24,634 nt of DNA from a virus (IMGVR_UViG_3300044267_004589:1-24634); one strand, 5' to 3'. Positions 10,202-24,570 are shown, numbered from the stretch's first letter. Numbers and translations: made by a program. The notes: a model not told the origin generated them from the letters alone.

Positions 10202-10426
10202 TCAATCAGCTTTAGAAATTATCTGCAATGAATTAACCTGATATTCCATTATCTTGTGCTGCTTGACACAGTAAACAGGAACAAATGGAAACAAAAGTTC
10301 TTGATCAAGTCGGGCCGGCTTTGCCACAAATCCTATATGCCCATCAGTGGTTTTTACTAAATCCCCTATGTTATAACATGTTAACCAGCCGTTACCTGTG
10401 ATGGTGTAGCTATTATCATACTTCAT
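10202..10426 (-). CDS. Small SH3/KOW-like protein (VGDLV family)
   Basis: YNIGDLVKTTDGHIGFV...LQIIS. Confidence 0.7.
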   Translation of the reverse strand: MKYDNSYTITGNGWLTCYNIGDLVKTTDGHIGFVAKPARLDQELLFPFVPVYCVKQHKIMEYQVNSLQIISKAD

Positions 10427-10722
10427 TAGTTTTCGCCTCGATTTTCGATTGAGTGCAATTCTACTGTACCAATTGCGATGGACATTTTTAAACCTTCTTC
10501 TTCTAATATAGCAGTTGTTTGGTTGTTTGTGTTTTCGTTGGTTTTAAATAACTTAACTTCCCATAAAAAGACATCATCCTTAATCATATCGATATGTCTT
10601 ATTCGTTTAGATAAAAAACCACGAAAATCTGAGATGTGATCGATGACCATATCTCCGACATTCAACATAACGTTATTGGCTACATCCCGCAACTTATTAA
10701 TATCAGATTTATTTTCGCTCAT
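10426..10722 (-). CDS. Small SH3/KOW-like protein (VGDLV family)
   Basis: LNVGDMVID...RGFL...WEVK; ATG 10722 with GGAGG RBS. Confidence 0.7.
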   Translation of the reverse strand: MSENKSDINKLRDVANNVMLNVGDMVIDHISDFRGFLSKRIRHIDMIKDDVFLWEVKLFKTNENTNNQTTAILEEEGLKMSIAIGTVELHSIENRGEN

Positions 10723-10975
10723 TACAGACCTCCATTCGGCCAGAATTAAGCATACCAAGTAAACCATTTTCTGTATATGGTTGATTTTTATTTATTTCAT
10801 CGGTAGCGGGACCGGTCCAGATTATATCCCAAGCCCATATTTGTGGCTCATGTTCCCAACTCTCCATTACATCATAACGTTTGACAAGTATTCCAATATC
10901 TCCGCTAATAATATCCTCTATCATCATTCCGGCATGCAAGTCAGTTTCACAATATTGTTCAATGTAATATTTCAT
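10709..10975 (-). CDS. Small SH3/KOW-like protein (divergent VGDLV family)
   Basis: LHAGMMIED...DIGILVK...WDIIW; resembles neighbour 10426..10722. Confidence 0.65.
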   Translation of the reverse strand: MKYYIEQYCETDLHAGMMIEDIISGDIGILVKRYDVMESWEHEPQIWAWDIIWTGPATDEINKNQPYTENGLLGMLNSGRMEVCNERK

Positions 10976-11282
10976 CAATGTAATTAGCTTCTGACGAATT
11001 GATTAGAAGCCAATCACCCTTGGTCCGTATGCATTCGGTTATAAAAATTGATAGTTTTTCTGGATCGTTGATAGAACTTTTGTCAATATTGCATACCTTT
11101 TTTGGATAATAACGGTCTGCGCTATTTGGATTCTCGCGAATTATGCTGCATTCCTGCAATTGTGGTGAGTGCGAAAAAGCATTGAATTCAGTGTTTAATG
11201 TAGCCATACAAAGACCGGCGCCAAAAGAGGCGAAGAGTAGAAATTTCATTTTTTTCCCAAAATTTTTATCATACTTAGTCAC
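10959..11282 (-). CDS. Hypothetical membrane-anchored or exported protein
   Basis: Basic N-terminus followed by hydrophobic FLLFASFGAGLCMA. Confidence 0.55.
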   Translation of the reverse strand: MTKYDKNFGKKMKFLLFASFGAGLCMATLNTEFNAFSHSPQLQECSIIRENPNSADRYYPKKVCNIDKSSINDPEKLSIFITECIRTKGDWLLINSSEANYIDEILH

Positions 11283-11299
11283 CTAACCAATTAAAATCA

Positions 11300-11572
11300 T
11301 TATATTTTAATTCGATCGATGATATATGGATGTTGCAGTGATAAGTCCTTGTATAATTTTTTAAGAACAGTTTTTGTAATATCGCCAATTTGATCTTTTG
11401 TTGATTTGTCATCCAAAGCCTTTTCAACTTCCTTGGCAATCATATCCTTGAGGTCTTTGTCTTTTAAAACCTTCTCGGCCTCTTTAGCCGCGAGCTTACG
11501 AACTTCCGCCTTATCATCAGCGGTGAGTTCTTCAATTATGAGTTGTCGCAATTTAGTAAATGTAATTTCCAT
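11300..11572 (-). CDS. Hypothetical helical protein (MEITFTKLRQLIIEEL leader)
   Basis: ORF track; ACTATTTA at 11602-11609. Confidence 0.75.
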   Translation of the reverse strand: MEITFTKLRQLIIEELTADDKAEVRKLAAKEAEKVLKDKDLKDMIAKEVEKALDDKSTKDQIGDITKTVLKKLYKDLSLQHPYIIDRIKI

Positions 11573-11691
11573 GATTTTTAACCAAAAAATTTTTCCATTA
11601 TTAAATAGTCCAAAAACGCCAGTTTTCCGCTAAAAATTTCCTTTATTGCAAGACACGCACAGAACACGCGCAGACAATGCCGACCGGTGTA

Positions 11692-11994
11692 TCACCTATT
11701 ACGTGGAATATCGTCCACAGAGTCGTATATGTGATTATCAAACATTAGCTTTTCCTCCACATGCATTAGGTCTCTATCATAATGGTACGATACACTGCCC
11801 CTAGTATGGGGCGGTCTGTTGAACCATTTAATTCCACATAAGTACACAGTGCCTGCAATCCCTCTCTCGATTACTTCAACGACTGTTCCCCAGCTTGTAC
11901 GGCCCTTAATGAACTTCTCCCGGTCACATAATGTAACAACGTCGCCAAGCTTAATCTCGCCCGTTTTATAGCTACGCAATTTTAATTCATTCAT
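11692..11994 (-). CDS. Small SH3/KOW-like protein (VGDLV family)
   Basis: IKLGDVVTL...WGTVVEV...IKWF. Confidence 0.7.
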   Translation of the reverse strand: MNELKLRSYKTGEIKLGDVVTLCDREKFIKGRTSWGTVVEVIERGIAGTVYLCGIKWFNRPPHTRGSVSYHYDRDLMHVEEKLMFDNHIYDSVDDIPRNR

Positions 11995-12251
11995 GGCGAT
12001 ATCCGCCTAAGATGCTCGGACACCTCTGTTGTAGATTTTCCACTGGCAAACCAATGTACTGTATACAACACAAATGAATCATATGATATTGTACCTATAG
12101 GCGAATTAATCTTAACTTCTGTTATAATACCCAATGTGCCGTCTTTGTCATCGATCATTAGATAGTCTGGTGTATAATGATATCCATGAAATGTCACCAA
12201 ATCGCCAACAAAGAGCTGTTCGCCCTTTTCGATCTCAACGTTGTCGCCCAT
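11991..12251 (-). CDS. Small SH3/KOW-like protein (VGDLV family)
   Basis: LFVGDLVTF...LGIITEV...YTVHWF...LRRIS. Confidence 0.7.
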   Translation of the reverse strand: MGDNVEIEKGEQLFVGDLVTFHGYHYTPDYLMIDDKDGTLGIITEVKINSPIGTISYDSFVLYTVHWFASGKSTTEVSEHLRRISP

Positions 12252-12263
12252 AATATATATATG

Positions 12264-12521
12264 TCAATGATTACATTGCTTGTATTTTTGTAATCGCCCA
12301 ATTGTATGCATCCAATCTTGGGACATCATCGAGTTTGGCTTCTTTACCCACCATATTCTTGCCATGTTCATCTTTGGGTACTCCTCACCTCTCTGTCTGT
12401 CAAATAACTCGATTACGACCGCTATACCACCATGGCATGTACATGTCACTAGGTCGCCTACCGCAAGCTCATGCTTGGGTGGTATCTCAAAGAAGTCCTT
12501 CACCCTTTCCCAATATCCCAC
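12264..12521 (-). CDS. Small SH3/KOW-like protein (VGDLV family)
   Basis: LAVGDLVTC...IAVVIEL...ARIWW. Confidence 0.7.
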   Translation of the reverse strand: MGYWERVKDFFEIPPKHELAVGDLVTCTCHGGIAVVIELFDRQRGEEYPKMNMARIWWVKKPNSMMSQDWMHTIGRLQKYKQCNH

Positions 12522-12660
12522 ACAAGTAACTATCTGCTATCTGCGTTTTTTATTTTGGGGATTTTTTTAGGGCCGCTTAAATCTCGAAAAATTACATCCG
12601 TATCGTGAACGTACTTAGACCACTTGTCAGGGGTATGTCAAATATAGAGACATAGATTCC

Positions 12661-12691
12661 GGTGGGGGGGTAGGGGGGTAGTACCCCCACC
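12661..12691. repeat. G-tract/C-tract inverted repeat
   Basis: ggtggggg (12661-12668) is complementary to cccccacc (12684-12691). Confidence 0.75.
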
Positions 12692-12738
12692 TCGCTGATT
12701 GTGCGCTTTCAAACTGGACAATCATCGACTGCATTTGC

Positions 12739-12804
12739 TGTCAAATAAGTGTCATAAACAGTTCTGTCAAATATATGTCAAATAATATGTCAAAAGACTG
12801 TCAA
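12739..12804. repeat. Iteron-like array of six TGTCA boxes, plus a pair at 12625/12636
   Basis: TGTCA starts at 12739, 12750, 12765, 12776, 12788, 12799 (spacings 11, 15, 11, 12, 11). Confidence 0.8.
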
Positions 12805-12864
12805 CATTTACGTAAACGAAAACAGTTTTGTATTTGTTTATTATTATATATACAAAACGTCTAT

Positions 12865-12877
12865 TAAGTTATTGATA
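12865..12877 (-). promoter_or_regulatory. IHF-consensus site; second copy at 13083-13095
   Basis: TATCAATAACTTA and TATCAACCACTTA both match WATCAANNNNTTR. Confidence 0.55.
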
Positions 12878-12894
12878 TTGTTAGAGTTTTATTT

Positions 12895-13005
12895 TTAGTT
12901 ATCTCGCACAATCTCGTCACTGTACTGGAGAGCAAGACCGACCACCGTTATAGCTATCGCTCCCCAGAACATAACGTGGGCTGCTGTTTGTAAAACCTTT
13001 GTCAT
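12895..13005 (-). CDS. Small single-TM peptide, 36 aa (MTKVLQTAAHVMFWGAIAITVVGLALQY...)
   Basis: ATG 13005 lies 5 nt downstream of ACTATTTA; hydrophobic core. Confidence 0.55.
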   Translation of the reverse strand: MTKVLQTAAHVMFWGAIAITVVGLALQYSDEIVRDN

Positions 13006-13275
13006 AATAGTAAATAGTCTATACTCTCGCGCACTTACACAACGCATGGCCCCTGTCACATTCATGCGACAAAAAAACATTGTAAGTGGTTGATATTGTT
13101 GATGATACTCTATCTGTATAAGTATATGATATTGCTATCTTTATCTGTCGCACCAAAATCACACCTTGACAAACAGTGCGAGAGCGTATATATATTAAAT
13201 ACTATAGCAAAAATCATACACAATAAACAGATCAATATAAGACACATCAAAATAATGCACTTATAAACTAATAAA

Positions 13276-13467
13276 TCACTGACCCCCATCATCTACTGCC
13301 GCATTATATAAACTGTTTACTACAACCACGGCAACCTGTTGTAAACATTTAAGAGAGTTATTATATAACGTGTAGTTACTATCATCTTTGTCTACCACTA
13401 CACACAACGACCTTGATCGTCCATCTGATAAGGTTTTTCTTTTTACTAACTCTCCAACCTTAAACAT
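13276..13467 (-). CDS. Small SH3/KOW-like protein (VGDLV family)
   Basis: MFKVGELVKRK...LCVVVD; GGAGGG RBS. Confidence 0.65.
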   Translation of the reverse strand: MFKVGELVKRKTLSDGRSRSLCVVVDKDDSNYTLYNNSLKCLQQVAVVVVNSLYNAAVDDGGQ

Positions 13468-13756
13468 TGTCACCCTCCATATTATTACATATCTCATCCT
13501 GCGCCTGTTTTGTCATCTCAGCAATATCGGCCACAGTCAAAGGGTTTTCTTTTCTTCGCTTGTTTTGTTCTCGCATTAGCTTCTTGAACCTTTTAGCTAC
13601 ATGCTTAACAACGTGCACGTTCTCGACACCAAGAGCGCGGAACCGGCGAGCGCCTTCGCGGGCTGCGGCTTCTTCGCTTGGCTTTGTTAGGATTGTTTCG
13701 GTGCCTGTCAGCTTTCCGTCTACAATCTTTAGTTCTGTTTTGGTGACGTAGTACAT
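13460..13756 (-). CDS. Hypothetical protein
   Basis: ORF track, same strand as neighbours; no obvious RBS. Confidence 0.7.
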   Translation of the reverse strand: MYYVTKTELKIVDGKLTGTETILTKPSEEAAAREGARRFRALGVENVHVVKHVAKRFKKLMREQNKRRKENPLTVADIAEMTKQAQDEICNNMEGDNV

Positions 13757-14467: not shown

Positions 14468-14546
14468 AGTTTTCTCCTTTCTATACATATAATATAACAC
14501 CGGAGCGGGTAAAAGTCAAGGGTTCAAATGTCAAGGAAATGTCAAG
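14468..14546 (-). promoter_or_regulatory. Early promoter cassette P1
   Basis: TTGACA 14540-45, TTGACA 14529-34, -35 TTGACT 14514-19, 17 bp, -10 TATATT 14491-96, AAGGAG. Confidence 0.9.
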
Positions 14547-14549
14547 AGA

Positions 14550-14774
14550 TTAGTCATTACAACAATCAGGGTGCTCCCAGTTCTCGACTTGCCAATCACT
14601 GATCATCTCGCAGTCGTGCAAGTTATCAATGTAGTTGCTCCAAGCCTCGGAGCGGGCAACGATGTCAATGTGTCCAAGGCGTTGCTCATCGTCTTGGATC
14701 ATCGGAAGGATCATGTTGACAAACGAGTCGGTTGCTTGCTCATGGGTCATAACGTGGTCGAGGTTTGAAGCCAT
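14550..14774 (-). CDS. Hypothetical early protein (AWSNYIDNL...WQVENWEHP)
   Basis: ORF directly downstream of cassette P2. Confidence 0.8.
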   Translation of the reverse strand: MASNLDHVMTHEQATDSFVNMILPMIQDDEQRLGHIDIVARSEAWSNYIDNLHDCEMISDWQVENWEHPDCCND

Positions 14775-14779
14775 AGAAT

Positions 14780-14858
14780 AATCTCCTTTCTTTCTATACT
14801 TATAATATAACCCCCTAAGAGGCTATCGTCAAGGTCTGAGTTGTCAGGTAAATGTTAG
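14780..14858 (-). promoter_or_regulatory. Early promoter cassette P2
   Basis: Boxes 14853 (variant) and 14842, -35 TTGACG 14827-32, -10 TATATT 14804-09, AAGGAG. Confidence 0.85.
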
Positions 14859-14860
14859 GG

Positions 14861-15073
14861 TTATCGGTTGCGTGCAGTAAAGGCTTCGATGTTAGAAGTT
14901 GCCGCAAGTGCTTCAAGATGGGCGATGAGTTCATTCAACACTGTTTCATGTCGAATACCGCTCAACTGAGAGAAGCGCAGGAAGTTTTCAAAAGAGATAC
15001 CCAAAGGGCGAAGCAACTCAGTGCTGAGTGTTCTGGTTTCTTTCAATGCGCTAAGTGCTTGTGCGAATGTCAT
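14861..15073 (-). CDS. Hypothetical early protein
   Basis: ATG 15073 follows the cassette RBS. Confidence 0.75.
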   Translation of the reverse strand: MTFAQALSALKETRTLSTELLRPLGISFENFLRFSQLSGIRHETVLNELIAHLEALAATSNIEAFTARNR

Positions 15074-15152
15074 AGTTTTCTCCTTTCTATACATATAATA
15101 TAACACCCGCAAGGGTAAAAGTCAAGGGTTGAGTTGTCAAGGGGTTGTCAAG
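15074..15152 (-). promoter_or_regulatory. Early promoter cassette P3
   Basis: Boxes 15146 and 15135, -35 TTGACT 15120-25, -10 15097-102; 56/60 identical to P1. Confidence 0.9.
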
Positions 15153-15364
15153 TCCACTTTGTCAAGATCCTGCACTGAACAAACGCCAGAGTTGCCAGTG
15201 TGCGGCCAGAATACTTTAACAAGTCCCGATCCAGATCCGTGATCCCGCGTCATCAGTTTCTTGAGAACAAGCCCAACAGTGGGCTTACGCTTTTTGCCAG
15301 TGGCAGGGTTCCAGATGGTTGCGTTGCTGCGAACGAGGTCGCCGGGTTGAAGATCGTAGTTCAT
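15137..15364 (-). CDS. Small SH3/KOW-like protein (VGDLV family)
   Basis: LQPGDLVRS...VGLVLK...VKVFW...DLDKV; stop lies inside a P3 box. Confidence 0.75.
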   Translation of the reverse strand: MNYDLQPGDLVRSNATIWNPATGKKRKPTVGLVLKKLMTRDHGSGSGLVKVFWPHTGNSGVCSVQDLDKVDLTTP

Positions 15365-15442
15365 AGTTTTCTCCTTTCTATACCTATAATATAACACCGA
15401 CAGGGGCTAAAGTCAAGGCTGCTTCTGTCAAGGGAATGTCAA
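15365..15442 (-). promoter_or_regulatory. Early promoter cassette P4
   Basis: Boxes 15437 and 15426, -35 TTGACT 15411-16, -10 15388-93, AAGGAG. Confidence 0.9.
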
Positions 15443-15528
15443 CAACAAGGCTAACATTTGTCGGGTCGAACACGGAGCCAGATCCCGGCTTGGACATGAT
15501 GGCTAAAAAAGCTAATAGTTTCATATAC

Positions 15529-15951
15529 TTACCAGTCTGCCGGGTCGTTGCTTGGCTTTGACCAGAGATCATGTTTTTGAGTCTCGGAGAGTTCGCCATC
15601 GTTGCGAGCGGCGCTAAAGTTTAACGCACGTCGCTCGGCTGCTCGGCTGGATGCTTTCGCTTGCTCGCGGGCTGCGATCCCAGCATTGATAAACTGATCT
15701 TCTGCAACCGTGAATGTGGAGCCAACAAGATCATTGTCATGCTTCGCTTGAAAGTCAACCGGGTCCATGAACAGATCAGGATCTTCGGGGTCATTCCATT
15801 CGCCGGGCCGTGCAGCTTGCTCCATAAGATCGTGGAGTAGTTCAAAAGCGGGTTGACCAGTGGAGTCCTCCAGCGTACCAGCTTGCTCCAGTAAGCAAGT
15901 GATCAAGTCAAGTTCTGCCTCGGTTACTCGAATGTTAATAAAGTCTGACAT
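15529..15951 (-). CDS. Hypothetical acidic early protein
   Basis: AGGAG RBS; ORF track. Confidence 0.8.
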   Translation of the reverse strand: MSDFINIRVTEAELDLITCLLEQAGTLEDSTGQPAFELLHDLMEQAARPGEWNDPEDPDLFMDPVDFQAKHDNDLVGSTFTVAEDQFINAGIAAREQAKASSRAAERRALNFSAARNDGELSETQKHDLWSKPSNDPADW

Positions 15952-15958
15952 TGTTCTC

Positions 15959-16060
15959 CTAACAGGTTGCCCATTTGAAGGCGAGGAAGATGAGAGCGGA
16001 CCAACAAGTGAGGTCTGCGATAATGAGAGCGGCCATCATGCCGTTGCGGTTTTGAAGCAT
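15959..16060 (-). CDS. 33-aa single-TM peptide (MLQNRNGMMAALIIADLTCWSALIFLAFKWATC)
   Basis: Hand-translated; first gene after cassette P5, with AAGGAG RBS. Confidence 0.7.
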   Translation of the reverse strand: MLQNRNGMMAALIIADLTCWSALIFLAFKWATC

Positions 16061-16139
16061 TTGCTTTCTCCTTTCTACCCTTATAATATAGCACCGAAAC
16101 GGGCAGAAGTCAAGGTTTAAGTTGTCAAGAGGTTGTCAA
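16061..16139 (-). promoter_or_regulatory. Early promoter cassette P5
   Basis: Boxes 16134 and 16123, -35 TTGACT 16108-13, -10 16085-90. Confidence 0.9.
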
Positions 16140-16317
16140 CGAGTCTAAGGTGAGAAGTTTTCTGTACTCTTGGTTCTGTTTCGCCTTTCCATAAAACTTT
16201 AATGTTGGTGTTGCCGGTATACTTTCCAGTCTCGACAACTAAACCAACATCAACGGATTCGCCCTTCCTCCATCGAGATGTTTGAAAGGTAAATGTCACC
16301 AGATCACCGACTTGCAT
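16117..16317 (-). CDS. Small SH3/KOW-like protein (VGDLV family)
   Basis: MQVGDLVTF...VGLVVE...IKVLW...HLRLV; 14-nt overlap with upstream gene. Confidence 0.75.
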   Translation of the reverse strand: MQVGDLVTFTFQTSRWRKGESVDVGLVVETGKYTGNTNIKVLWKGETEPRVQKTSHLRLVDNLLTT

Positions 16318-16789
16318 CTTTGATCTCCGTGATATGGCGACACTTCCGACGCCAGCCAAAACCGGCGCAGGTGCACGTCCATGTGCCTCCGTGATCGGTT
16401 ACCGTGTAGATGTTCCCCTTGCTGCCTTCAACGTCATACGTGCGAACCTCGGCCACTGGAGAGGTATCTGAACGCTGGCGTACAACCATGTACCGGTCCA
16501 AGTCCTCAAAAGTGGTATCATCCGGTACTTCAATCCAGTTTTGACCGGAGATTGCCCACTTTTGATCATTCACGTCAGTATACAGCATCGGCGGCATATC
16601 AACAACGATCGGGGTTTTGTTCATCATCATATCACCAAGTTCTTCAAGGCTAATAAAAAAAGGTTTAAGGTCGATCGGGTTAGCTTCCAGAAACTCGTCA
16701 AGGATCTGCATAATATCCTCATAACGCTCTTGACGTGGTGATTTCTGTTTGCTTCTCCGATACTCGTCGAGGTCAACAAGATCGCCCAT
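16304..16789 (-). CDS. SWIM zinc-finger protein
   Basis: VEGSKGNIYTV...WTCTC-x8-CRH. Confidence 0.8.
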   Translation of the reverse strand: MGDLVDLDEYRRSKQKSPRQERYEDIMQILDEFLEANPIDLKPFFISLEELGDMMMNKTPIVVDMPPMLYTDVNDQKWAISGQNWIEVPDDTTFEDLDRYMVVRQRSDTSPVAEVRTYDVEGSKGNIYTVTDHGGTWTCTCAGFGWRRKCRHITEIKDASR

Positions 16790-17106
16790 TAAAAAGGCTC
16801 GTTTCGATCACTGAACGGTGATACTTCCCACGCCATCGGATGCATGATCTCGATGTTACCAGTCATGTACTTGGTAAGGTTGACATGGCAAGATGTGGTC
16901 TGACTGCGAAACTCTTTAACGGGTGCGGTGTAGTCAGCAAGGACAAACTCACCGCTCGCAGTGCGTTCACCGATCTTTAACTCATAGCTAAACAACTCTG
17001 CGCGTCCGTTAGGATAGGATACGCTTGTCAAACTTTCCCTGTGATTCCGGGCACTTACACCATTTTGCCATGCTCTGATCACGTTGTCATTAGTGCATAC
17101 TTTCAT
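16789..17106 (-). CDS. Hypothetical phage protein (LFSY...SQTTSCH)
   Basis: ATGA and TAATG overlaps with neighbours. Confidence 0.8.
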   Translation of the reverse strand: MKVCTNDNVIRAWQNGVSARNHRESLTSVSYPNGRAELFSYELKIGERTASGEFVLADYTAPVKEFRSQTTSCHVNLTKYMTGNIEIMHPMAWEVSPFSDRNEPF

Positions 17107-17294
17107 GCTTCACCTGCTACCCTTGGAAGGGCTGATATTGTTGTTAAAAAAATGTCTTTCATCGCTTCGCTTTCTTCCTCTGCAAGTTGTGATGCTACCA
17201 TCAAACAAGTGATCACGTTCTCACAGTTTTCGCGGCTCTCATCCATAGGTGTCAGTGAACCGCTTGCGTTTAGTAGGATTGTTGTTCCGTACAT
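17103..17294 (-). CDS. Hypothetical early protein
   Basis: First gene after cassette P6, with AAGGAG. Confidence 0.75.
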   Translation of the reverse strand: MYGTTILLNASGSLTPMDESRENCENVITCLMVASQLAEEESEAMKDIFLTTISALPRVAGEA

Positions 17295-17371
17295 TTTAAC
17301 TCCTTTCTATACTATAAATATAGCACCAGATCGTTTATTCGTCAAGGTTTTCTTTGTCAAGCAAATGTCAA
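17295..17371 (-). promoter_or_regulatory. Early promoter cassette P6
   Basis: Boxes 17366 and 17355, -35 TTGACG 17340-45, -10 TATATT 17317-22. Confidence 0.9.
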
Positions 17372-17649
17372 CGATCGCCCATGAAGATCCGATCAGCGAA
17401 TCGCTTGGCGTTTCGAAGGTTTGCCATATCGTCGAGATCCTTAATCTGATCCGATCCTTCATCGTTCAAATGTTTAACGGACTCTTTCATAAACTTGCGC
17501 AGCACCTTGATAAACTCGATCTTACCAAACGATTCCTTAGTGCCATAGCCGCCACCGCCAACATATTCAATGTGCATCAGGCGCACAACCTTTAGCGCGT
17601 TCTTAATCCCGTTGGGATCATCAGAGTCTATAACAATGGTCATTTTCAT
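17368..17649 (-). CDS. Hypothetical protein with possible bL12 C-terminal-like motif
   Basis: KIEFIKVLR...LRNAKRFAD; stop lies inside the P6 distal box. Confidence 0.7.
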   Translation of the reverse strand: MKMTIVIDSDDPNGIKNALKVVRLMHIEYVGGGGYGTKESFGKIEFIKVLRKFMKESVKHLNDEGSDQIKDLDDMANLRNAKRFADRIFMGDR

Positions 17650-17657
17650 GGTTTAGC

Positions 17658-18872
17658 CTAATCAATCGCGATAATGCGTTCATTTGTTGAGAAGTATGGC
17701 CGTGATGCGTAGTTCTTGGTGGTCATCCACATACGTTGACACTTGGAGGCGACAGGTTTGGGAGCCATTAGATCAGTCAGTACAATGTGACCATCAAACT
17801 CGCGATCGTTCACGTACTTGGTTGGAGCATCGAAGCATGTGCCGCCAGTCAACACGCGCTCAGTTTTACGGGTCTGTCCTTTCTTCCAAATATATACCTT
17901 GTCCTCTGCAACCCGTGTATCAAACGGGATCACGGTAAACTCCGCGATCTCTGCCAGTTTGTTCAGCTCGGAGAAGAACGCGGTCAACATACCATCATCG
18001 ACAGAGCCAGATTGATCAATCGAGATTGCGATCTTGGCATGGCGACGGACACGCTTACCGGGGTGAACCTTTGGGAACCGCTTGTTAAGACGGCGAGGCG
18101 TCGAACGCTTGTCAGAGCGTTGTGAAGTTTTTACGAAGTACCTGAGCACCTTGCGCCAATCGATCTTAGTGGCGATGCGGTCAAGAACGTCCTGACGCAT
18201 GGATGATGATACTGTACCCCAGTTGCGGGCTTTCTCAGCTTCCTCGGCGGCTTTCTTGATAGTTTCCTTCATGCGTTCCTTAGCGATCTCTTGTGTAGTA
18301 CCATCGACCTCACCGAAACCTTGGTGATCGTCAAGAGAGTCAGCACCACCGAAAGCATCGCCGTTACCCTCGCCGTCGCCACCATCTTTCTGCATGTCTT
18401 TCAATGCTTCAAGATACCACTCGTAGGTTTTGAATGGTGGGAGATCCTTGAACATACCTTCACCGGGGATCAGCGCCTTCATTGGCTCGTCGCCAATAGT
18501 AGGGCCGGGGTTTTCTTCCGATGGCAGGTGTCGAGAGATATGACAGTTGATTGACAAGTCCATCGCGATGTTGTCGATCCGCTTGAGTCCATCGGCAGGA
18601 AGCCGACCGGTCACATGCTCAAAGATCAAGTGATAAAACTCATGCATGAGGATACCCAACTTGTGATCATCCGAGAGCGAGCCCATAAACTCAGGGTTGT
18701 AAAGTAGTTCAAACTGAGCACTGTCAGGGTTGACACGAACACCGGCTGTAGGGATCGACGTTGTTGCAATCTTGTCAATACGACGTGAGATAGCAGCGAA
18801 GAACGGCTCACGCATAAGCAAGCGGGCAGTGTGCATGTTCAGGTTGAAAGGCTTGTTAGGCTTGTCGGTCAT
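17658..18872 (-). CDS. DUF2201-like protein: HExxH metallopeptidase domain plus VWA domain
   Basis: HEFYH, NIAMDLSIN, MIDAS DQSGS, GGT, LTD. Confidence 0.9.
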   Translation of the reverse strand: MTDKPNKPFNLNMHTARLLMREPFFAAISRRIDKIATTSIPTAGVRVNPDSAQFELLYNPEFMGSLSDDHKLGILMHEFYHLIFEHVTGRLPADGLKRIDNIAMDLSINCHISRHLPSEENPGPTIGDEPMKALIPGEGMFKDLPPFKTYEWYLEALKDMQKDGGDGEGNGDAFGGADSLDDHQGFGEVDGTTQEIAKERMKETIKKAAEEAEKARNWGTVSSSMRQDVLDRIATKIDWRKVLRYFVKTSQRSDKRSTPRRLNKRFPKVHPGKRVRRHAKIAISIDQSGSVDDGMLTAFFSELNKLAEIAEFTVIPFDTRVAEDKVYIWKKGQTRKTERVLTGGTCFDAPTKYVNDREFDGHIVLTDLMAPKPVASKCQRMWMTTKNYASRPYFSTNERIIAID

Positions 18873-18949
18873 TGTTTTCTCTCCTTACCCTTATAATATA
18901 GTCACTTAAAGGCAATAGGTCAAGGTTATTTGTGTCAAGGGAATGTCAG
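18873..18949 (-). promoter_or_regulatory. Early promoter cassette P7
   Basis: Boxes 18944 and 18933, -35 TTGACC 18918-23, -10 18895-900, TAAGGAG. Confidence 0.9.
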
Positions 18950-19095
18950 GACTTTCCTAACCCGTGAGCCAGAACAGACGCAAGCTGTTCTTCGTTCAAC
19001 GATCGCCGCATTAGTTCTTCGGCTACCTCTTGACCGTGTGTGTGCCATACATGCTGCAAAAATGACAATACTTCTTGAAGTTCTGTTTGAGACAT
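18946..19095 (-). CDS. 49-aa hypothetical protein (MSQTELQEVLSFLQHVWHTHGQEVAEELMRRSL...)
   Basis: Hand-translated; starts after the P8 RBS and stops in the P7 distal box. Confidence 0.7.
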   Translation of the reverse strand: MSQTELQEVLSFLQHVWHTHGQEVAEELMRRSLNEEQLASVLAHGLGKS

Positions 19096-19174
19096 TGTGC
19101 TCTTTCTCCTTACCCTTATAATATAGTCACTTAAAGGCGATAGGTCAAGGTTTAAGTTGTCAAGGGAATGTCAA
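19096..19174 (-). promoter_or_regulatory. Early promoter cassette P8
   Basis: Boxes 19169 and 19158, -35 TTGACC 19143-48, -10 19120-25; 47/48 identical to P7. Confidence 0.9.
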
Positions 19175-19380
19175 GGAAGATCATAATGCGCTCGAAGTCG
19201 AACCTCATCGATCCATCCCTGCTCTCCGTCAATGTGGAGTTTGAACCTCCACCTTTTGTTAGCTATGTCGCCGTACTTGGCGCGTGATGTTTCTTCTTTG
19301 CCGAGAACGATCGCAGGCTTACCGTCATTGACGGAATAAATGAGATCACCGACTTTTAGTTTATCTGTCCACATGGGCAT
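19171..19380 (-). CDS. Small SH3/KOW-like protein (VGDLV family)
   Basis: LKVGDLIYS...PAIVLG; stop lies in the P8 distal box. Confidence 0.75.
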   Translation of the reverse strand: MPMWTDKLKVGDLIYSVNDGKPAIVLGKEETSRAKYGDIANKRWRFKLHIDGEQGWIDEVRLRAHYDLP

Positions 19381-19567
19381 CTGATATTATTAACAAATCT
19401 TCTTCATGGAAGGCCATCTGTTCTTCACTTTTTAACCACTTTACATGGTACTGTATTCGCTTGCCTACCGGCTGGTAGATGCGATTAACTACCCCAACAC
19501 CGTGATGATTCGAGAAAGGTCGCGCAAGGCTCCCAAGTCCTGACAACTTAACTAAATCGCCAATCAT
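19361..19567 (-). CDS. Small SH3/KOW-like protein (VGDLV family)
   Basis: MIGDLVKL...GVGVVNR...YHVKWL...EEDLLIIS. Confidence 0.75.
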   Translation of the reverse strand: MIGDLVKLSGLGSLARPFSNHHGVGVVNRIYQPVGKRIQYHVKWLKSEEQMAFHEEDLLIISDAHVDR

Positions 19568-19595
19568 GGGAGCCCTAAGCGGCGGTCCAAAGGCT

Positions 19596-20675
19596 CTACT
19601 GTGAGCCACCAAGGATCTCCACCAGATGATCGCTCACGCCCTTACCATCGGACGTTTGTGCCTTGTGGAGCGCAATCACGTTGTTAGTGTTGTCAGCTTC
19701 ACCGAGAACGGTCCACAGCTTCATGGCGACCTCGGAAGGCAGTGCTACAAAGTAGTCAGCAAGGTTGGCGATCTGCCCATCGGTCAAGTCCTCAACAAAA
19801 GTCTCGGATGCTGCCATCTTCTCAATCATAGCAGAGTGATCATTGATACCCCACTGCGTAGTTTTGTCGATGGCACCGTTGTCCAGAAGATCCTCGATGG
19901 TCACTTGCCATTCGTACTTTTCAATGAAGTCACGGAGCGATACAGCAGCTTCAAAGCCAACAAACGCAGTTGCAAGATTGAAAAGAAGATTGCTGTCGCC
20001 ATCTTCGTTGAACACACCGGTAGATGCGGCCGTGTCATTGAAGCGTGCCCAGCTACGGCGGGACGGGTAAACCTTGTTAGGCTCGAAGTCATCGCTATGC
20101 TCAAGGTGCTGGCGGTTCTGGTTAATGAAGTCCCACAGGATAGCGTTGACGTTACCTTGTGCCCATGTCAGCCAGTCCTCAGTGGATGGTTCCACGTCGA
20201 ACACAGTCCAACGGTCAAGCTCTGCCGGGTCCATCTCGCCGACCTGATACTGAGCGCCATGCTCGCCACCATTGACGGCGGCGACAATCAGAGTCTCAGG
20301 GTGAAGGTTCCAGCCGTTGATCTTGCGGCTGTCGGTCAACTCGAAAAGACCCTGACGAACCTCCATAGTCGCACGGTCAACCTCATCAAGAAAGAGCATG
20401 ACGGGCTGCGTACAGGCTGTTACCAGCCAATCAGGAGCGTTCCAAGTGGTAGCCTTGCGACCATCCGAAAGATCGGCGGTGTCAGGCAGACCAAGAAGAT
20501 CACCCTCGGTCATCTGTGAAGCACGACGCTCGACGACTGGCAAGCCGCGAGTCTCGGCAATCTGATAGACTACCTGAGATTTACCGACACCGTGACGGCC
20601 ACGAAGAAGCACCGGAAGGCGCACATCGAGGATGTGTTCTACTGTCGAGAGGAATGTTGTGAAGTCTACTGCCAT
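19596..20675 (-). CDS. MoxR-like AAA+ ATPase
   Basis: Walker A GRHGVGKS, Walker B LFLDEVDR, sensor-1 AAVN, arginine-finger region DPAELDRW; near a VWA partner. Confidence 0.92.
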   Translation of the reverse strand: MAVDFTTFLSTVEHILDVRLPVLLRGRHGVGKSQVVYQIAETRGLPVVERRASQMTEGDLLGLPDTADLSDGRKATTWNAPDWLVTACTQPVMLFLDEVDRATMEVRQGLFELTDSRKINGWNLHPETLIVAAVNGGEHGAQYQVGEMDPAELDRWTVFDVEPSTEDWLTWAQGNVNAILWDFINQNRQHLEHSDDFEPNKVYPSRRSWARFNDTAASTGVFNEDGDSNLLFNLATAFVGFEAAVSLRDFIEKYEWQVTIEDLLDNGAIDKTTQWGINDHSAMIEKMAASETFVEDLTDGQIANLADYFVALPSEVAMKLWTVLGEADNTNNVIALHKAQTSDGKGVSDHLVEILGGSQ

Positions 20676-20710
20676 GATAATCTCCTTGAGAGAGGTTGTT
20701 TCTTTGCCTT

Positions 20711-20785
20711 ACACTATAAATATAGCACCGTAAGGCATTTAAGTCAAGTATTTTGTTGTCAAAGGAATGTTAAGAGAGTTGTCAA
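20711..20785 (-). promoter_or_regulatory. Early promoter cassette P9
   Basis: Boxes 20768 (variant) and 20757, extra box 20780, -35 TTGACT 20742-47, -10 20719-24. Confidence 0.85.
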
Positions 20786-20791
20786 TAAAGA

Positions 20792-20878
20792 TGGTAGCTG
20801 ATGCGGGACTCGAACCCGCAAGCCCATGCGGGCGCGAGATTTTAAGTCTCGTGTGTATACCAGTTCCACCAATCAGCC
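20792..20878 (-). tRNA. tRNA-Leu(UAA), with encoded CCA
   Basis: Acceptor GGCTGAT/ATCAGCT, anticodon arm CGAGA-CTTAAAA-TCTCG, long variable arm, T arm GCGGG-TTCGAGT-CCCGC, ACCA end. Confidence 0.97.
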
Positions 20879-20885
20879 ATTTCAT

Positions 20886-20954
20886 CCTCTTACCCTTATA
20901 ATATAGTCACTTAACCCTCGCCCGTCAAGGCGAGAGTTGTCAAGCAAATGTCAA
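20886..20954 (-). promoter_or_regulatory. Early promoter cassette P10, upstream of the tRNA
   Basis: Boxes 20949 and 20938, -35 TTGACG 20923-28, -10 20900-05. Confidence 0.9.
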
Positions 20955-21847
20955 GTGTTCCGCATGTCATAGTGTTCTTCAAGTCCGAGATCCCTGATCA
21001 CTTGCACGGTGACACCACTCGGATACGCATAGTCATAGTTGCGTTGCTTCTCATACTTGCGCCCCTGTGTCGGAAACTCACGCAGGATAGCTTTCTCAAG
21101 GCTCTCCGCTGTTGGTTCAAGCCAGCCTTTAGGTGGGTCAAGACCGGGCAGCAGCGATGATGCTGGCAAGTTATCACCCTCGGCGGCTGCGTATGCGCGA
21201 GCCTTTTGGTGGTTCTCCACCAGTCTTTCAAGCCTATCGCGTGAGGTCCACCGATGTTGATCTGGCGCTGCGAGTTTGCGAGCATCAATGTGATAAGCTG
21301 CCAGATTTTGACGGCCAGATACGCATGCATCCCAATCAACCGACTTGATGTAGCGCAAGGTTAAAATGTCTGAGCGGTAGTTTCCATCAGCATCATAGCC
21401 TGACGAACGAATTGGGATCATTGAACCGATACCGATACCCAAGTTCGCGGCTGTCTCAAACGCAGCGATACGGGCCCGGCGCGTTTCTTCAATGAAAACT
21501 TGCTTGTCACGCTTGACATGCGGGCATACACGGCGCGTGTGACCGCGCTCGCCGCAGTATCCGCAAGTCACTTTTTTCATGCGTTCAGCTTTCGCTACCT
21601 TGTTAGTAACCTTCTTGCCGGTAGCAAGATCGATCTTGGTGCGCTTGATGTATAGTTGACGCTTTTCTTCTGCGCGTTGCTCATACCACTTGGCATCGTT
21701 TTCGTTGCCATCGGCGCGGTGTTGTTTGACCATCGCCACAGAACCCTCATACTGATCTTTGATCTGTTCTGAGAGTACGGGACACTTACGCTTGTTGTGT
21801 CCTTGACGATAGCAGTGTGAGCAGGTGACGGTTCCAGACCATGACAT
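20951..21847 (-). CDS. Protein with two CCHC zinc knuckles
   Basis: CSHCYRQGHNKRKC and CGYCGERGHTRRVC (C-x2-C-x4-H-x4-C). Confidence 0.85.
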   Translation of the reverse strand: MSWSGTVTCSHCYRQGHNKRKCPVLSEQIKDQYEGSVAMVKQHRADGNENDAKWYEQRAEEKRQLYIKRTKIDLATGKKVTNKVAKAERMKKVTCGYCGERGHTRRVCPHVKRDKQVFIEETRRARIAAFETAANLGIGIGSMIPIRSSGYDADGNYRSDILTLRYIKSVDWDACVSGRQNLAAYHIDARKLAAPDQHRWTSRDRLERLVENHQKARAYAAAEGDNLPASSLLPGLDPPKGWLEPTAESLEKAILREFPTQGRKYEKQRNYDYAYPSGVTVQVIRDLGLEEHYDMRNT

Positions 21848-21926
21848 AATGATTTCTCCTTTCTATACTTATAATATAACAACCTGACGGGCTAAGTCAA
21901 GTTAAACTTTGTCAAGCAGTTGTCAA
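21848..21926 (-). promoter_or_regulatory. Early promoter cassette P11
   Basis: Boxes 21921 and 21910, -35 TTGACT 21895-900, 16 bp, -10 21873-78. Confidence 0.9.
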
Positions 21927-22100
21927 GAGAGTTAAACTATTTTTGCAGCACCACTCTTTGCGACCGGGACCGAACAGGGATTCGCCCTGTGTTGTCCATA
22001 ACACATGCACCGCTGCTAAACTGGATTCAGCATTGTTCATATCCAGCACAATACCGATCTGCTCGGTAAGAAAATGTCTAACAATATCACCTACTTGCAC
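21912..22100 (-). CDS. VGDLV array member 14
   Basis: GTG start, MQVGDIVRH; stop lies in a P11 box. Confidence 0.8.
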   Translation of the reverse strand: MQVGDIVRHFLTEQIGIVLDMNNAESSLAAVHVLWTTQGESLFGPGRKEWCCKNSLTLLTTA

Positions 22101-22251
22101 TGATCACCTCCAAGTATTGCGGTTGAAAGGCACACATGCGATTGTTGCTAATCAGCATGACGCCATACAAATCGGATACCTTGAAGTGTTCGACAATGAT
22201 GCCCATGCCACAACTTCCCGTCAAACATTTAACTAAGTCACCGACTTTCAT
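22087..22251 (-). CDS. VGDLV array member 13, 54 aa (MKVGDLVKCLTGSCGMGIIVEH...LEVISASR)
   Basis: Hand-translated; below the ORF-track cutoff. Confidence 0.8.
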   Translation of the reverse strand: MKVGDLVKCLTGSCGMGIIVEHFKVSDLYGVMLISNNRMCAFQPQYLEVISASR

Positions 22252-22414
22252 TGATCACCTCAAGATTCTGCGGACGGAAAGGGTAGATTGTATCATGTCC
22301 GTGCATCTTTACCTTGTACTGTGTATTGCCATGCAGTGAAGGCCATACCTCAACAATGAGTCCCAATGGTCTACCAGACACCGATGCACATATAACCAAG
22401 TCACCGACTTTCAT
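22238..22414 (-). CDS. VGDLV array member 12, 58 aa (MKVGDLVICASVSGRPLGLIVEV...LEVINESR)
   Basis: Hand-translated; first gene after P12. Confidence 0.8.
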   Translation of the reverse strand: MKVGDLVICASVSGRPLGLIVEVWPSLHGNTQYKVKMHGHDTIYPFRPQNLEVINESR

Positions 22415-22487
22415 ACCTCTCCCTTACCCTTATAATATAACACCCACACAGGAAAAGTCAATCAAAGTTGTGTCAGGGAAATGTCAA
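22415..22487 (-). promoter_or_regulatory. Early promoter cassette P12
   Basis: Boxes 22482 and 22471, -35 TTGACT 22456-61, 16 bp, -10 22434-39. Confidence 0.85.
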
Positions 22488-22636
22488 GAAGCATTTACTA
22501 ACTGCATGTATTCGATGGCTACTTTGTTGCCATTGTGAAGTTTAACGAACCTGCCGGTTTCTCTCTTGCCCCACACTTCCACGATGATGCTGTGGTTCCT
22601 ATGGTATCTGTCATATACCAGATCACCGACTTTCAT
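22484..22636 (-). CDS. VGDLV array member 11, 50 aa (MKVGDLVYDRYHRNHSIIVEV...MQLVNAS)
   Basis: Hand-translated; ATGA overlap; stop lies in the P12 distal box. Confidence 0.8.
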   Translation of the reverse strand: MKVGDLVYDRYHRNHSIIVEVWGKRETGRFVKLHNGNKVAIEYMQLVNAS

Positions 22637-22833
22637 GCACTCACCTTCTTTAGATCATAGTCCCACATTGATTCACTCACGCCTCCGCAAGTCCACACAA
22701 CCTTGAACACATCGTTGCCCTTGGCACGCGGCTGTTCAACTTTAGCCACAATGATGCCCCTGTGACCCGAAGGATAATAGCCCCGTGTGTCTCCATGTAG
22801 AAATATCGACTCGACCAGATCACCGACTTGCAT
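22633..22833 (-). CDS. VGDLV array member 10
   Basis: MQVGDLVES...RGIIVA...FKVVW. Confidence 0.8.
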   Translation of the reverse strand: MQVGDLVESIFLHGDTRGYYPSGHRGIIVAKVEQPRAKGNDVFKVVWTCGGVSESMWDYDLKKVSA

Positions 22834-22990
22834 TTAATACCTCCAGCCGCAAGCCACATTCGATCTTGGGCTTGTGTTCATCTGTCCACATGACCCACAC
22901 ATCGGCAGGCTTTGCCCATCGCTTTTTACACGGTCCCATAACAAGACCAACCGATCCTCTGAAAGCTACTAATGTTCCTGTTTTAATCAC
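22820..22990 (-). CDS. VGDLV array member 9, 56 aa (MIKTGTLVAFRGSVGLVMG...VWVMW...LEVLNASR)
   Basis: Hand-translated; GTG start after GGAG. Confidence 0.75.
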   Translation of the reverse strand: MIKTGTLVAFRGSVGLVMGPCKKRWAKPADVWVMWTDEHKPKIECGLRLEVLNASR

Positions 22991-23165
22991 TTATAATCTC
23001 CAACCACTTAACGGGCTCCCATGATACCTCTGCGTCTTGAATCCAGTAGACTTTAACGCGGGTGTGGCTTGTTCCACGATTGATGCCATCGGGTTTCGTT
23101 TGTAAAACAATGCCCGTGATTGGCTCAACGCTCTGCGGCATACATATCAGATCACCGACTTTCAT
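22983..23165 (-). CDS. VGDLV array member 8
   Basis: MKVGDLICM...TGIVLQ...VKVYW...WLEIIS. Confidence 0.8.
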   Translation of the reverse strand: MKVGDLICMPQSVEPITGIVLQTKPDGINRGTSHTRVKVYWIQDAEVSWEPVKWLEIISD

Positions 23166-23241
23166 ATCTCTCCCAATGATATATATAATATAGCATCATC
23201 GGGCCGTGCCGTCAATAGTTTGTTTGTCAAGCAAATGTCAA
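23166..23241 (-). promoter_or_regulatory. Early promoter cassette P13
   Basis: Boxes 23236 and 23225, -35 TTGACG 23210-15, -10 23187-92. Confidence 0.85.
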
Positions 23242-23387
23242 GAACTTATGCGTTCCCATGCTTCTGAGTTAAAAACCTGATTCGGTGGAAAACCAGCCAC
23301 CTTAAAGTGTGCACCATATCGACCGGTCCACGTCACTATGCTGATCTTGCCGGTTACTTTGTGCTTCACCAGATCACCGACTGTCAC
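23238..23387 (-). CDS. VGDLV array member 7, 49 aa (MTVGDLVKHKVTGKISIVTW...WERISS)
   Basis: Hand-translated; GTG start after GGAGG; stop lies in the P13 distal box. Confidence 0.8.
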   Translation of the reverse strand: MTVGDLVKHKVTGKISIVTWTGRYGAHFKVAGFPPNQVFNSEAWERISS

Positions 23388-23583
23388 TCACAACCTCCAA
23401 CCATTTGACAGGCTCCCATGATACCTCACCATCTTCGATCCAGCATACCTCAACGCGCCTAATAGCGGGGCGTCCAACACCTCCGATGGGTGTGAAACCT
23501 TTGACCTCTCCGTTGCACTGCCTTAAAACAATGCCCGACGCTGGCAGTCCTCCACGCATCCGTACCAGATCACCGGGCTTCAT
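23374..23583 (-). CDS. VGDLV array member 6
   Basis: MKPGDLVRM...SGIVLR...VEVCW...WLEVVSDSR. Confidence 0.8.
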   Translation of the reverse strand: MKPGDLVRMRGGLPASGIVLRQCNGEVKGFTPIGGVGRPAIRRVEVCWIEDGEVSWEPVKWLEVVSDSR

Positions 23584-23786
23584 GCTTCCACCTTGTTCAT
23601 CCACTTCAAAAGCCCGCGATCAATGATCCTCGGGTTTGCCTCTCCGACCATCAAAACCTGATGATTCTCGACCGTCACGCCATCGTCACGATGGATAAAA
23701 GCCTCACCGAGATAAATGGCAATCTTCCCCGCCAAACGCGGCGCTCCCCTGAACCCTTCAAATCTATACAGATCACCTACCTTCAC
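23580..23786 (-). CDS. VGDLV array member 5
   Basis: MKVGDLYRF...IAIYLG. Confidence 0.8.
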   Translation of the reverse strand: MKVGDLYRFEGFRGAPRLAGKIAIYLGEAFIHRDDGVTVENHQVLMVGEANPRIIDRGLLKWMNKVEA

Positions 23787-23955
23787 TTACTACCTCCAAC
23801 CACCTTTCGGGCTCCCATTCAACCTTACCGGGCTTCGGAAGCCATCTTATACCTACCTGCGCGGACTTATGCAGATCGCTGCGGTGAATGTCAACCACAA
23901 CCCCAACAAGCCCTGTATCATAATCTCTCATTTTGACCAAATCTCCGATGTTCAC
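23773..23955 (-). CDS. VGDLV array member 4
   Basis: GTGA overlap; MNIGDLVKM...VGVVVD...VGIRW...WLEVVSEGR. Confidence 0.8.
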   Translation of the reverse strand: MNIGDLVKMRDYDTGLVGVVVDIHRSDLHKSAQVGIRWLPKPGKVEWEPERWLEVVSEGR

Positions 23956-24152
23956 GATATGACCCAAAAGTTTGTAGCATCAGCTTCAAAGCGCGATGCA
24001 TCTGATATACATTGAACAAGGGCATCATCGTCACCATATAGGGTCTTTGTCATCTTGAGGACAAGAAAGACTGCATCTGTCAGAATAGGGGTATTCGTAC
24101 CCGTTCCATCGCAGTCGTCAATAATAAGTTTAACTAAGTCACCGACCCTCAT
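23952..24152 (-). CDS. VGDLV array member 3
   Basis: MRVGDLVKL...VFLVLK. Confidence 0.8.
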   Translation of the reverse strand: MRVGDLVKLIIDDCDGTGTNTPILTDAVFLVLKMTKTLYGDDDALVQCISDASRFEADATNFWVIS

Positions 24153-24313
24153 GCGCTCACCAAAACTTTAACGTCCTGATGAAGTGCGAGGATATTGCGA
24201 GGATGATTTTGTGGCTTGATGTGAACCCCATCCTTCGTGATATTAACAACAACACCCAGCTTCTCGCCGTAGTATTTTGTACGAACTCTAACTAAATCTC
24301 CTACTTTAACCAC
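24149..24313 (-). CDS. VGDLV array member 2, 54 aa (MVKVGDLVRVRTKYYGEKLGVVVNI...VKVLVSA)
   Basis: Hand-translated; GTG start after GGAGG; KOW-like. Confidence 0.8.
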   Translation of the reverse strand: MVKVGDLVRVRTKYYGEKLGVVVNITKDGVHIKPQNHPRNILALHQDVKVLVSA

Positions 24314-24494
24314 TTACAACCTCCATATCCTTAGCCTCAACCCATCCAGTATCGCGGCGGTGTGGCCAGTATACTTGAGCAAGTGGTTGATCCTCGTAGG
24401 CACCCTCGCGCAGCTTGATAACAATACCGATGCGAGCGCGAGCGTGTGACCCCACGGCGTATCGGCTTCTTATAATGTTTCCGACTTCAATCAT
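24306..24494 (-). CDS. VGDLV array member 1
   Basis: MIEVGNIIRS...IGIVIK...AQVYW...DMEVVS. Confidence 0.8.
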   Translation of the reverse strand: MIEVGNIIRSRYAVGSHARARIGIVIKLREGAYEDQPLAQVYWPHRRDTGWVEAKDMEVVSG

Positions 24495-24570
24495 CTGTTT
24501 TCTCCTTACTCAAATAATATAAGACCGCGCAGCGGTTACGGCAACTTTTTTCTTGTCAAGTAAATGTCAA
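24495..24570 (-). promoter_or_regulatory. Early promoter cassette P14
   Basis: Boxes 24565 and 24554, -35 TTGCCG 24539-44, -10 24516-21, TAAGGAG. Confidence 0.85.

Follow-up and report, generated by a model that had tools for sequence, protein, structure and literature searches.

A dual-coding gene joint as a probable site of cassette exchange in a putative T4-like marine phage

Integron arrays are built with IntI, attI and attC. Modular shuffling at PeSL linkers exchanges small orphan genes in the hyperplastic region of the T4-type phages RB49 and phi1 (Arbiol et al. 2010, PMC2839356). In the parts of that paper that set out the system, the linker is an intergenic sequence of about 100 bp that combines a sigma70 promoter with a stem-loop terminator and flanks unrelated genes, no integrase is identified, and the authors compare their system to integrons, as we do the present one (PMC2839356). 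In the linker model of Botstein, homologous exchange is steered by short conserved sequences at the borders of genes, so that expression is preserved (PMC2839356, PMC3029335); where it treats mosaic boundaries, the second of these papers states that such sequences are not findable at most of them (PMC3029335). The internal protein (IP) loci of T-even phages are hypervariable, carry small genes behind repeated upstream elements and are thought to serve defence or adaptation; in the account given of them alongside PeSL, the elements are promoter-based, with about 30 variants and packaged products, and no overlap joint is described (PMC2839356). Here we analyze IMGVR_UViG_3300044267_004589:1-24634 (the window), an entire virus record of 24,634 nucleotides (nt), in which small genes of one family are fused into an array through a repeated overlap joint. 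This joint is a conserved homology patch of about 20-33 nt belonging to hundreds of small genes, and it is probable that whole genes are gained, lost, reordered and passed on there, most likely by RecA/UvsX. The window is a piece of the genome of a large uncultured marine phage with T4-like relatives.

The array shares with PeSL the setting in a hyperplastic region of a T4-type phage, the exchange of small orphan genes at repeated linkers, and the lack of an identified integrase, and the strain differences map to the linker here too (9/9 pure insertions or deletions, indels). Unlike the PeSL linker, the joint measures about 20-33 nt, lies inside two reading frames, supplies the ribosome-binding site (RBS), start and stop, and serves one protein family in arrays that are reordered. 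It agrees with the Botstein model, but here a single dual-coding linker is used by hundreds of gene families arranged in tandem. Deletions and amplifications at short homologies are also known from minihomology recombination by T4 UvsX, where, in the cases described, the homologies are chance matches of 3-10 bp, whereas here a dedicated repeat stands at every gene start (PMC8262927, PMC9391042). As in integrons, the units are single genes in a common orientation that genomes acquire, lose, reorder and share. The differences from integrons are that no tyrosine recombinase (PF00589) was found in 5/5 complete relatives (14/14 controls were positive), six 46-nt joints have no attC-like hairpin in common, the site is part of coding sequence, and a single family makes up the cargo. 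Serine-recombinase shufflons and invertases differ as well, because PF00239 is present in 0/5 relatives and all motif copies are on one strand. The system would thus belong to neither the PeSL nor the integron class, since its linker is coding and neither integrase nor attC was found. It is a form of linker-mediated shuffling, with the T4-type PeSL closest. No description of the cassette family or of the joint was found in the literature covered, which excluded supplements and most subscription journals.

The array is formed by 14 small genes of 49-69 amino acids (aa) at 21912-24494 (minus strand), with the form M-x-V-G-D-L-V ... L-E-V-I/V-S/N. The joints and genes are listed below.

22081..22112 (-), joint; L-E-V-I codons give the RBS, start GTG at 22100, upstream gene stopped in GGTGA, 14-nt overlap 22087/22100
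22232..22263 (-), joint; 14-nt overlap 22238/22251
22617..22648 (-), joint; used as 4-nt ATGA overlap 22633/22636, GTCGGTGA retained though unneeded as stop
22814..22845 (-), joint; 14-nt overlap 22820/22833
23368..23399 (-), joint; 14-nt overlap 23374/23387
23767..23798 (-), joint; 14-nt overlap 23773/23786
16298..16329 (-), joint; follows the SWIM-like gene, 14-nt overlap 16304/16317
21912..22100 (-), cassette gene, 62 aa; last of run, terminal member kept in relatives
22087..22251 (-), cassette gene, 54 aa
22238..22414 (-), cassette gene, 58 aa; first after promoter repeat
22484..22636 (-), cassette gene, 50 aa; stop falls in TTGACA of the promoter repeat that follows
22633..22833 (-), cassette gene, 66 aa
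22820..22990 (-), cassette gene, 56 aa; a copy in L199 is 89% identical and has different neighbours
22983..23165 (-), cassette gene, 60 aa; predicted SH3/KOW-type beta-barrel, pLDDT 87
23238..23387 (-), cassette gene, 49 aa
23374..23583 (-), cassette gene, 69 aa
23580..23786 (-), cassette gene, 68 aa
23773..23955 (-), cassette gene, 60 aa
23952..24152 (-), cassette gene, 66 aa
24149..24313 (-), cassette gene, about 54 aa
24306..24494 (-), cassette gene, 62 aa; first after promoter repeat
16117..16317 (-), cassette gene, 66 aa; placed after the SWIM-like gene
16304..16789 (-), SWIM-like gene (named for a CxC...CxH signature, uncertain start); stop taken from the joint
10709..10722 (-), divergent 14-nt overlap that joins older members of the family, with GGAGGT and a TAA stop but lacking GGTGA

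A preliminary description of this DNA had placed exact 14-nt overlaps at 22087/22100, 22238/22251, 22820/22833, 23374/23387 and 23773/23786 (minus strand). On re-reading, all five were correct, and 5/5 fit the pattern GAGGTNNTNA-RTG-NNN-GTMGGTGA. Their upstream genes end in ASR, ESR, ASR, DSR and EGR, respectively, and the next gene opens with GTG CAA GTA GGT GAT at the first overlap and with ATG AAA GTC GGT GAC at the second. Tails such as ESR, ASR, EGR and ENR arise because the start of the next gene is read out of frame. Among 874 such joints in relatives, ESR (443) and ASR (214) are the commonest tails, and the upstream gene is not scored as a family member in 187. The sequence RTG AAA GTC GGT GAY contains TGA in both off-frames, RTGA (+2) leading to a 4-nt overlap and GGTGA (+12) to a 14-nt overlap. 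Therefore, whichever off-frame an incoming gene is in, it stops 4 or 14 nt inside the start of the next gene. The RBS is spelled by the last strand of the upstream protein, L-E-V-I/V (TTG GAG GTG ATC); with L-E-V-I encoded in this way the DNA reads GGAGGTGATC, which we take to be a full match to the 16S 3' end. The remaining array joints are 4-nt RTGA overlaps (22633/22636, 23580/23583, 23952/23955, 24149/24152) or 8-nt overlaps (22983/22990, 24306/24313), and the overlap joints contain no intergenic DNA. The genes starting at 22414 and 23165 follow a promoter repeat instead. The window holds 11 copies of GTMGGTGA, all on the minus strand, versus 0.84 expected, and at least 11 copies occurred in 0/100 shuffles. 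The exact string GTC GGT GAY YTR, previously put at about ten copies, is present at 8 of these 11 sites.

The same overlap had been claimed behind an unrelated SWIM gene at 16304/16317. The exact 14-nt overlap is there, with the tail KDASR, but the upstream RBS is GGAG and not GAGGT. The SWIM label lacks Pfam support and goes back to a CxC...CxH signature, which we assume to be SWIM-like. Nor is the ASR ending of this gene independent evidence, because it is the start of the next gene in another frame. Homologues of the SWIM-like gene end in ESR, ASR or ANR and are followed by different cassettes. The divergent case at 10709/10722 was described correctly as a 14-nt overlap, with GGAGGT, but has a TAA stop and no GGTGA.

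A search of IMG/VR with the joint pattern found about 240 stretches, from which 150 loci were returned, 80 of them with flanks. A second search with a protein-derived pattern that omitted the joint added 13 viral and 99 metagenome loci. Genes were called with a simple caller that missed some starts, so the joint counts are biased low, not high. Five complete relatives have genomes of 190-204 kb, and all five encode Gp23 and a RecA-family (RecA/UvsX) protein; the window itself has no capsid gene. The strict joint motif is confined to one strand and one 5-15 kb region per genome in 5/5 complete genomes. Clustering at 50% identity sorts 1405 family genes from 167 stretches into 600 groups, the longest run has 21 genes, and the approximate ratio of nonsynonymous to synonymous substitution rates of 0.10 (161 pairs) indicates purifying selection on the gene bodies. 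No cultured phage matched the cassettes or the capsid DNA, and the best capsid protein matches were 46-51%. The joint pattern also occurs in four metagenome-assembled genomes from four unrelated taxa, which we take to be binned phage contigs and not evidence of a host. One locus (L153, 1450-3483) encodes a Gp23 major capsid protein of 677 aa with an insertion of about 300 residues between its conserved halves.

The location of gain and loss breakpoints relative to the motif had been set beforehand as the test of the proposal. Strain pairs were compared where flanks were at least 95% identical over at least 350 nt, and indels of at least 60 nt were scored; the automatic scan gave 31 rows, or 24 after 7 repeats of the same event via a duplicate strain were dropped. 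In all nine non-redundant pure indels, the two ends lie at joints in the same register, and the segment removed (154-703 nt) comprises 1-4 whole genes. They fall between two in-register copies of RTGAAAGTCGGTGAYYTRGT, one of which is retained in 9/9 cases. The exact repeats at these indels are only 6-20 nt long, and one indel used ATGAAA alone. For example, a single gene flanked by two copies of a 20-nt repeat distinguishes L011 from L022 (99.6-100% identical), and one gene, at a 17-nt exact repeat, sets L020 apart from L079. L020 and L062 have flanks that are 98.9% identical, yet they differ in gene content and in the order of the genes they share. Among the first 61 stretches, with four near-duplicate strains excluded as extra partners, 65/99 alignment ends within arrays fall at -16..+26 in both partners, versus 22% expected, and every one of the 65 keeps register. 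Of the remaining 34 ends, many are about one gene length off, where starts were probably missed. In the window, the gene starting at 22636 is 93% identical to a copy in L176 with different neighbours, and the identity begins exactly at its ATG; the identity of the gene starting at 22990 to its copy in L199 (89%) ends at the 22814..22845 joint; and in L251 the homologue of gene 23955 is joined directly to that of gene 22100.

Linkage mapping (78 and 171 pairs) showed that start base +1 tracks the upstream gene (0.87 versus 0.49 background), whereas the synonymous positions +16, +18 and +21 track the downstream gene (0.80, 0.67 and 0.98 versus 0.45, 0.44 and 0.31 background). Exchanges thus map to about +2..+20, around GGTGA, so the moving unit is a gene body together with its C-terminal RBS and the next start codon. 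The upstream neighbour is kept in 82/462 pairs of cassettes versus 394/743 pairs of other small genes (at least 80% identity), and the downstream neighbour in 136/467 versus 314/763 close pairs. Single cassettes are 96.5-97% identical between L020/L062 and L031, while the capsid regions of L031 and L020 are only 75-85% identical.

The codons of the joint are conserved beyond what the overlap requires. In copies without the 14-nt overlap and with scan-matched sites removed, GTC is used in 58/111 and GGT in 78/111, versus backgrounds of about 22% and 31-34%. A larger set of start-proximal copies without the 14-nt overlap, in which scan-matched sites were kept, gave 101/200 and 147/200. Internal VGD motifs are background-like (GTC 12/50, GGT 15/50), so the DNA motif goes beyond what codon bias and the protein motif account for. 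The claimed synonymous conservation therefore exceeds codon usage where the overlap needs none, but dual coding contributes to it too. The excess may reflect inheritance from earlier 14-nt contexts or active homogenisation, either of which would imply movement between contexts. Together with the in-register breakpoints, this conservation largely supports the earlier proposal of a plug-in microhomology.

Several points weigh against exchange at the joint. Fifteen of the 24 strain differences are replacements, which have a joint at both ends in 4 cases (one by eye), at one end in 4 and at none in 7, and some are bounded mid-gene or at promoter or tRNA edges. The reordered pair L020/L062 accounts for three of the nine indels, and these vary with the choice of collinear chain. 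As the motif opens every gene, a whole-gene change of any kind will seem to end at it, and some of the signal could be due to selection for intact genes. Conservation is in part a matter of protein sequence: the +1 base belongs to the Asn/Ser codon of the upstream gene as well, and GTT, the commonest Val codon, which would give a C-terminal Trp, is found in 2/563 14-nt joints. The first set of loci was selected by the joint pattern itself, although the second was not; the pair counts are non-independent, so that p-values are descriptive; and all comparisons come from metagenome assemblies. The window's own strain yielded no clean deletion or circle among contigs in which motif joints were matched over 18-31 letters per side. 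These short-sided joints, with their unread interiors, may come from other phages and were not counted as deletions or circles.

The array could instead have grown by tandem duplication and illegitimate recombination followed by selection, with the joint kept by overlap and protein constraint so that only whole-gene changes survive. The near exclusion of GTT at 14-nt joints and the need of an SH3 fold for the VGD-L and L-E-V strands agree with this, and homology-free mosaicism at gene boundaries is the common model, as outlined in PMC3029335. The exact register of all joint-located alignment ends, the single repeat copy kept at every indel, the GTC/GGT enrichment outside both the overlap and internal VGD motifs, and the faster loss of neighbours by cassettes than by other small genes speak against it. 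We regard this explanation as improbable and already largely refuted.

Misjoins at repeated joints could also make the indels and the reordering unreal, and unitigs do break at joints in data that are all metagenome assemblies. The exact repeats at the indels are, however, 6-20 nt long, and the k-mers usual in final assembly are longer than this. Separate records agree over whole arrays (L012/L051, L004/L023), L020 and L079 are one gene apart, and moved genes differ by 1-12% from their counterparts. The gene order of the window is reproduced in unitigs from three runs that cross its joints without differences (X1 22898-24147, X8 23113-23896, X9 23117-23646; one run is possibly the source sample of the window); in a DNA-kind search, the stretch turned up in no RNA run. 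An assembly artefact is therefore very improbable.

The exchanges could be carried out by general recombination or by a dedicated enzyme. An unrecognised site-specific recombinase might act on the GTCGGTGA core and move cassettes as circles, as in integrons. The narrow exchange zone centred on GGTGA and the restriction of the motif to one 5-15 kb region and one strand in 5/5 genomes are what such an enzyme would produce, and one X1 unitig has the same joint at both ends (it goes back 33, with a side of 31 and an unread interior). The absence of PF00589 and PF00239 from all five complete genomes, which bears out the description of the array as integrase-free, argues against this explanation, as do the lack of a hairpin common to six joints, the indel at ATGAAA alone, and exchanges mid-gene and at promoter repeats. 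We consider a dedicated recombinase unlikely. General recombination is preferred because no recombinase family and no shared hairpin were found, swaps occur at other conserved patches, and the length of homology varies from 6 to about 36 nt. In the T4 work at hand, UvsX is able to pair very short homologies (PMC8262927), and amplifications arise at microhomologies of 6-10 bp (PMC9391042).

With general recombination, joints would cross over out of register, either inside one replicating genome or between two co-infecting phages, and units would thereby be deleted, duplicated or imported; successive events of this kind would reorder the cassettes. Frequent exchange and the dual-coding constraint would keep the joint homogeneous, and, through translational coupling, the sigma70-like early promoters would go on driving every arrangement. 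The joint is a favoured exchange site, not the sole one, as swaps also occur inside genes and at promoter repeats. In a pair of 99.6% identical strains, the central loop of one cassette gene was swapped (L178 2028-2093 versus L188 1600-1680). Such intragenic chimeras would also diversify the family.

The runs of cassettes are preceded by a promoter-like repeat with about 13 copies at 14545-24570 (minus strand) and the form TTGACA-N5-TTGACA...TTGAC-17-TATATT...AGGAGA.

22415..22487 (-), sigma70-like promoter repeat (TTGACA repeats, TATATT, AG-rich RBS); splits the array, consensus match only
24570, 23241, 21926, 20954, 19174, 18949, 17371, 16139, 15442, 15165, 14847, 14545 (-), further promoter repeat starts; consensus matches only

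The TGA of the first TTGACA is the stop of the last gene in several runs (22484, 23238, 19171, 20951, 17368); thus the promoter module also supplies a stop. The block that differs between L176 and L177 begins at a promoter repeat. The repeats appear to form a second, PeSL-like layer of shuffling, separate from the joint, the resemblance being one of promoter consensus.

The product of 22983-23165 was predicted, with 66 homologues, to fold into a small antiparallel SH3-like beta-barrel of about 55 residues (predicted local distance difference test, pLDDT, 87). The model is similar to KOW (Spt5/NusG), PWWP, Tudor and CPH domains, R67 DHFR, YorP and many unnamed viral proteins, with Z scores of 6-7.9, a root mean square deviation of about 2 Å over about 51 residues and 7-24% identity. 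Foldseek gave template modelling scores of about 0.6-0.7 and no E value below 0.001. The predicted fold is thus shared with SH3-like barrels, but no Pfam match exceeds the cut-off. The family assignment is weakened by the fact that the model covers one of 15 aligned window members, and the Z scores indicate a common fold only; from the shared end motifs, the other cassette proteins probably adopt the barrel as well. In Pfam and PHROGs no cassette protein scored above the cut-off, with one weak PHROG match (E 0.0024) and sub-threshold Pfam matches to Cul7 CPH, ProQ_C, KOW2_Spt5 and BAH. The ESM Atlas returned only unnamed viral clusters, with DsrB and R67 DHFR as leads below 0.9. The barrels may be diversifying binding surfaces that act early in infection against variable host targets. 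Since they are divergent, stand behind early-type promoters and occupy a variable region, there is an even chance that they constitute a binder library for host takeover or counter-defence.

Elsewhere in the window, all on the minus strand, further family members at 1253-2273 and 10202-13497 are older and AT-rich, with internal x-G-D-L motifs and the DNA joint lost; apparently they are settled copies outside the mobile pool. A MoxR AAA ATPase and metallopeptidase-vWA (DUF2201) pair at 17658-20675 has two family genes inserted between its members. MoxR-vWA pairs are known from jumbo phages, in an account that, where it treats them, mentions no such array (PMC7824862). A tRNA-Leu(TAA) at 20792-20878 lies behind its own promoter repeat. 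The gene-free segment 12590-12800, with many tandem TTGACA, borders the GC-rich early and the AT-rich regions and could be a genome end, an origin or a regulatory hub. T-even IPs have a conserved N-terminal targeting peptide. Four unrelated genes starting at 3239, 4174, 5348 and 8806 open with the common peptide MKLLLENWRK..E / MNKIHNNWRLFLE, which, we assume, recalls the T4-type capsid targeting sequence, and they possibly encode packaged internal proteins. One of these regions, 3236-4174, matches the PHROG 'minor head protein'; its R...S...ExE motifs are presumably typical of ADP-ribosyltransferases, and the product may be an Alt-like packaged enzyme.

A wider reading, which we offer tentatively, is that the array is an integrase-free integron analogue in coding DNA. 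A marine T4-like clade would pool hundreds of SH3-barrel binders whose gene ends act at once as recombination site, RBS, start and two-frame stop, and which would pass singly from one phage species or array position to another, forming a combinatorial counter-defence library, possibly exchanged as packaged mini-circles. The array offers an unusually clean population-level case of the long-debated linker model, with breakpoints mapped to about 20 bases. When the genes' own start, stop and RBS serve as the recombination linker, it need take up no intergenic DNA, and the joint suggests a compact design for swappable coupled operons. The homology-directed or illegitimate origin of phage accessory regions becomes testable, and a large unnamed family of small barrels under purifying selection is open to screening for host targets.

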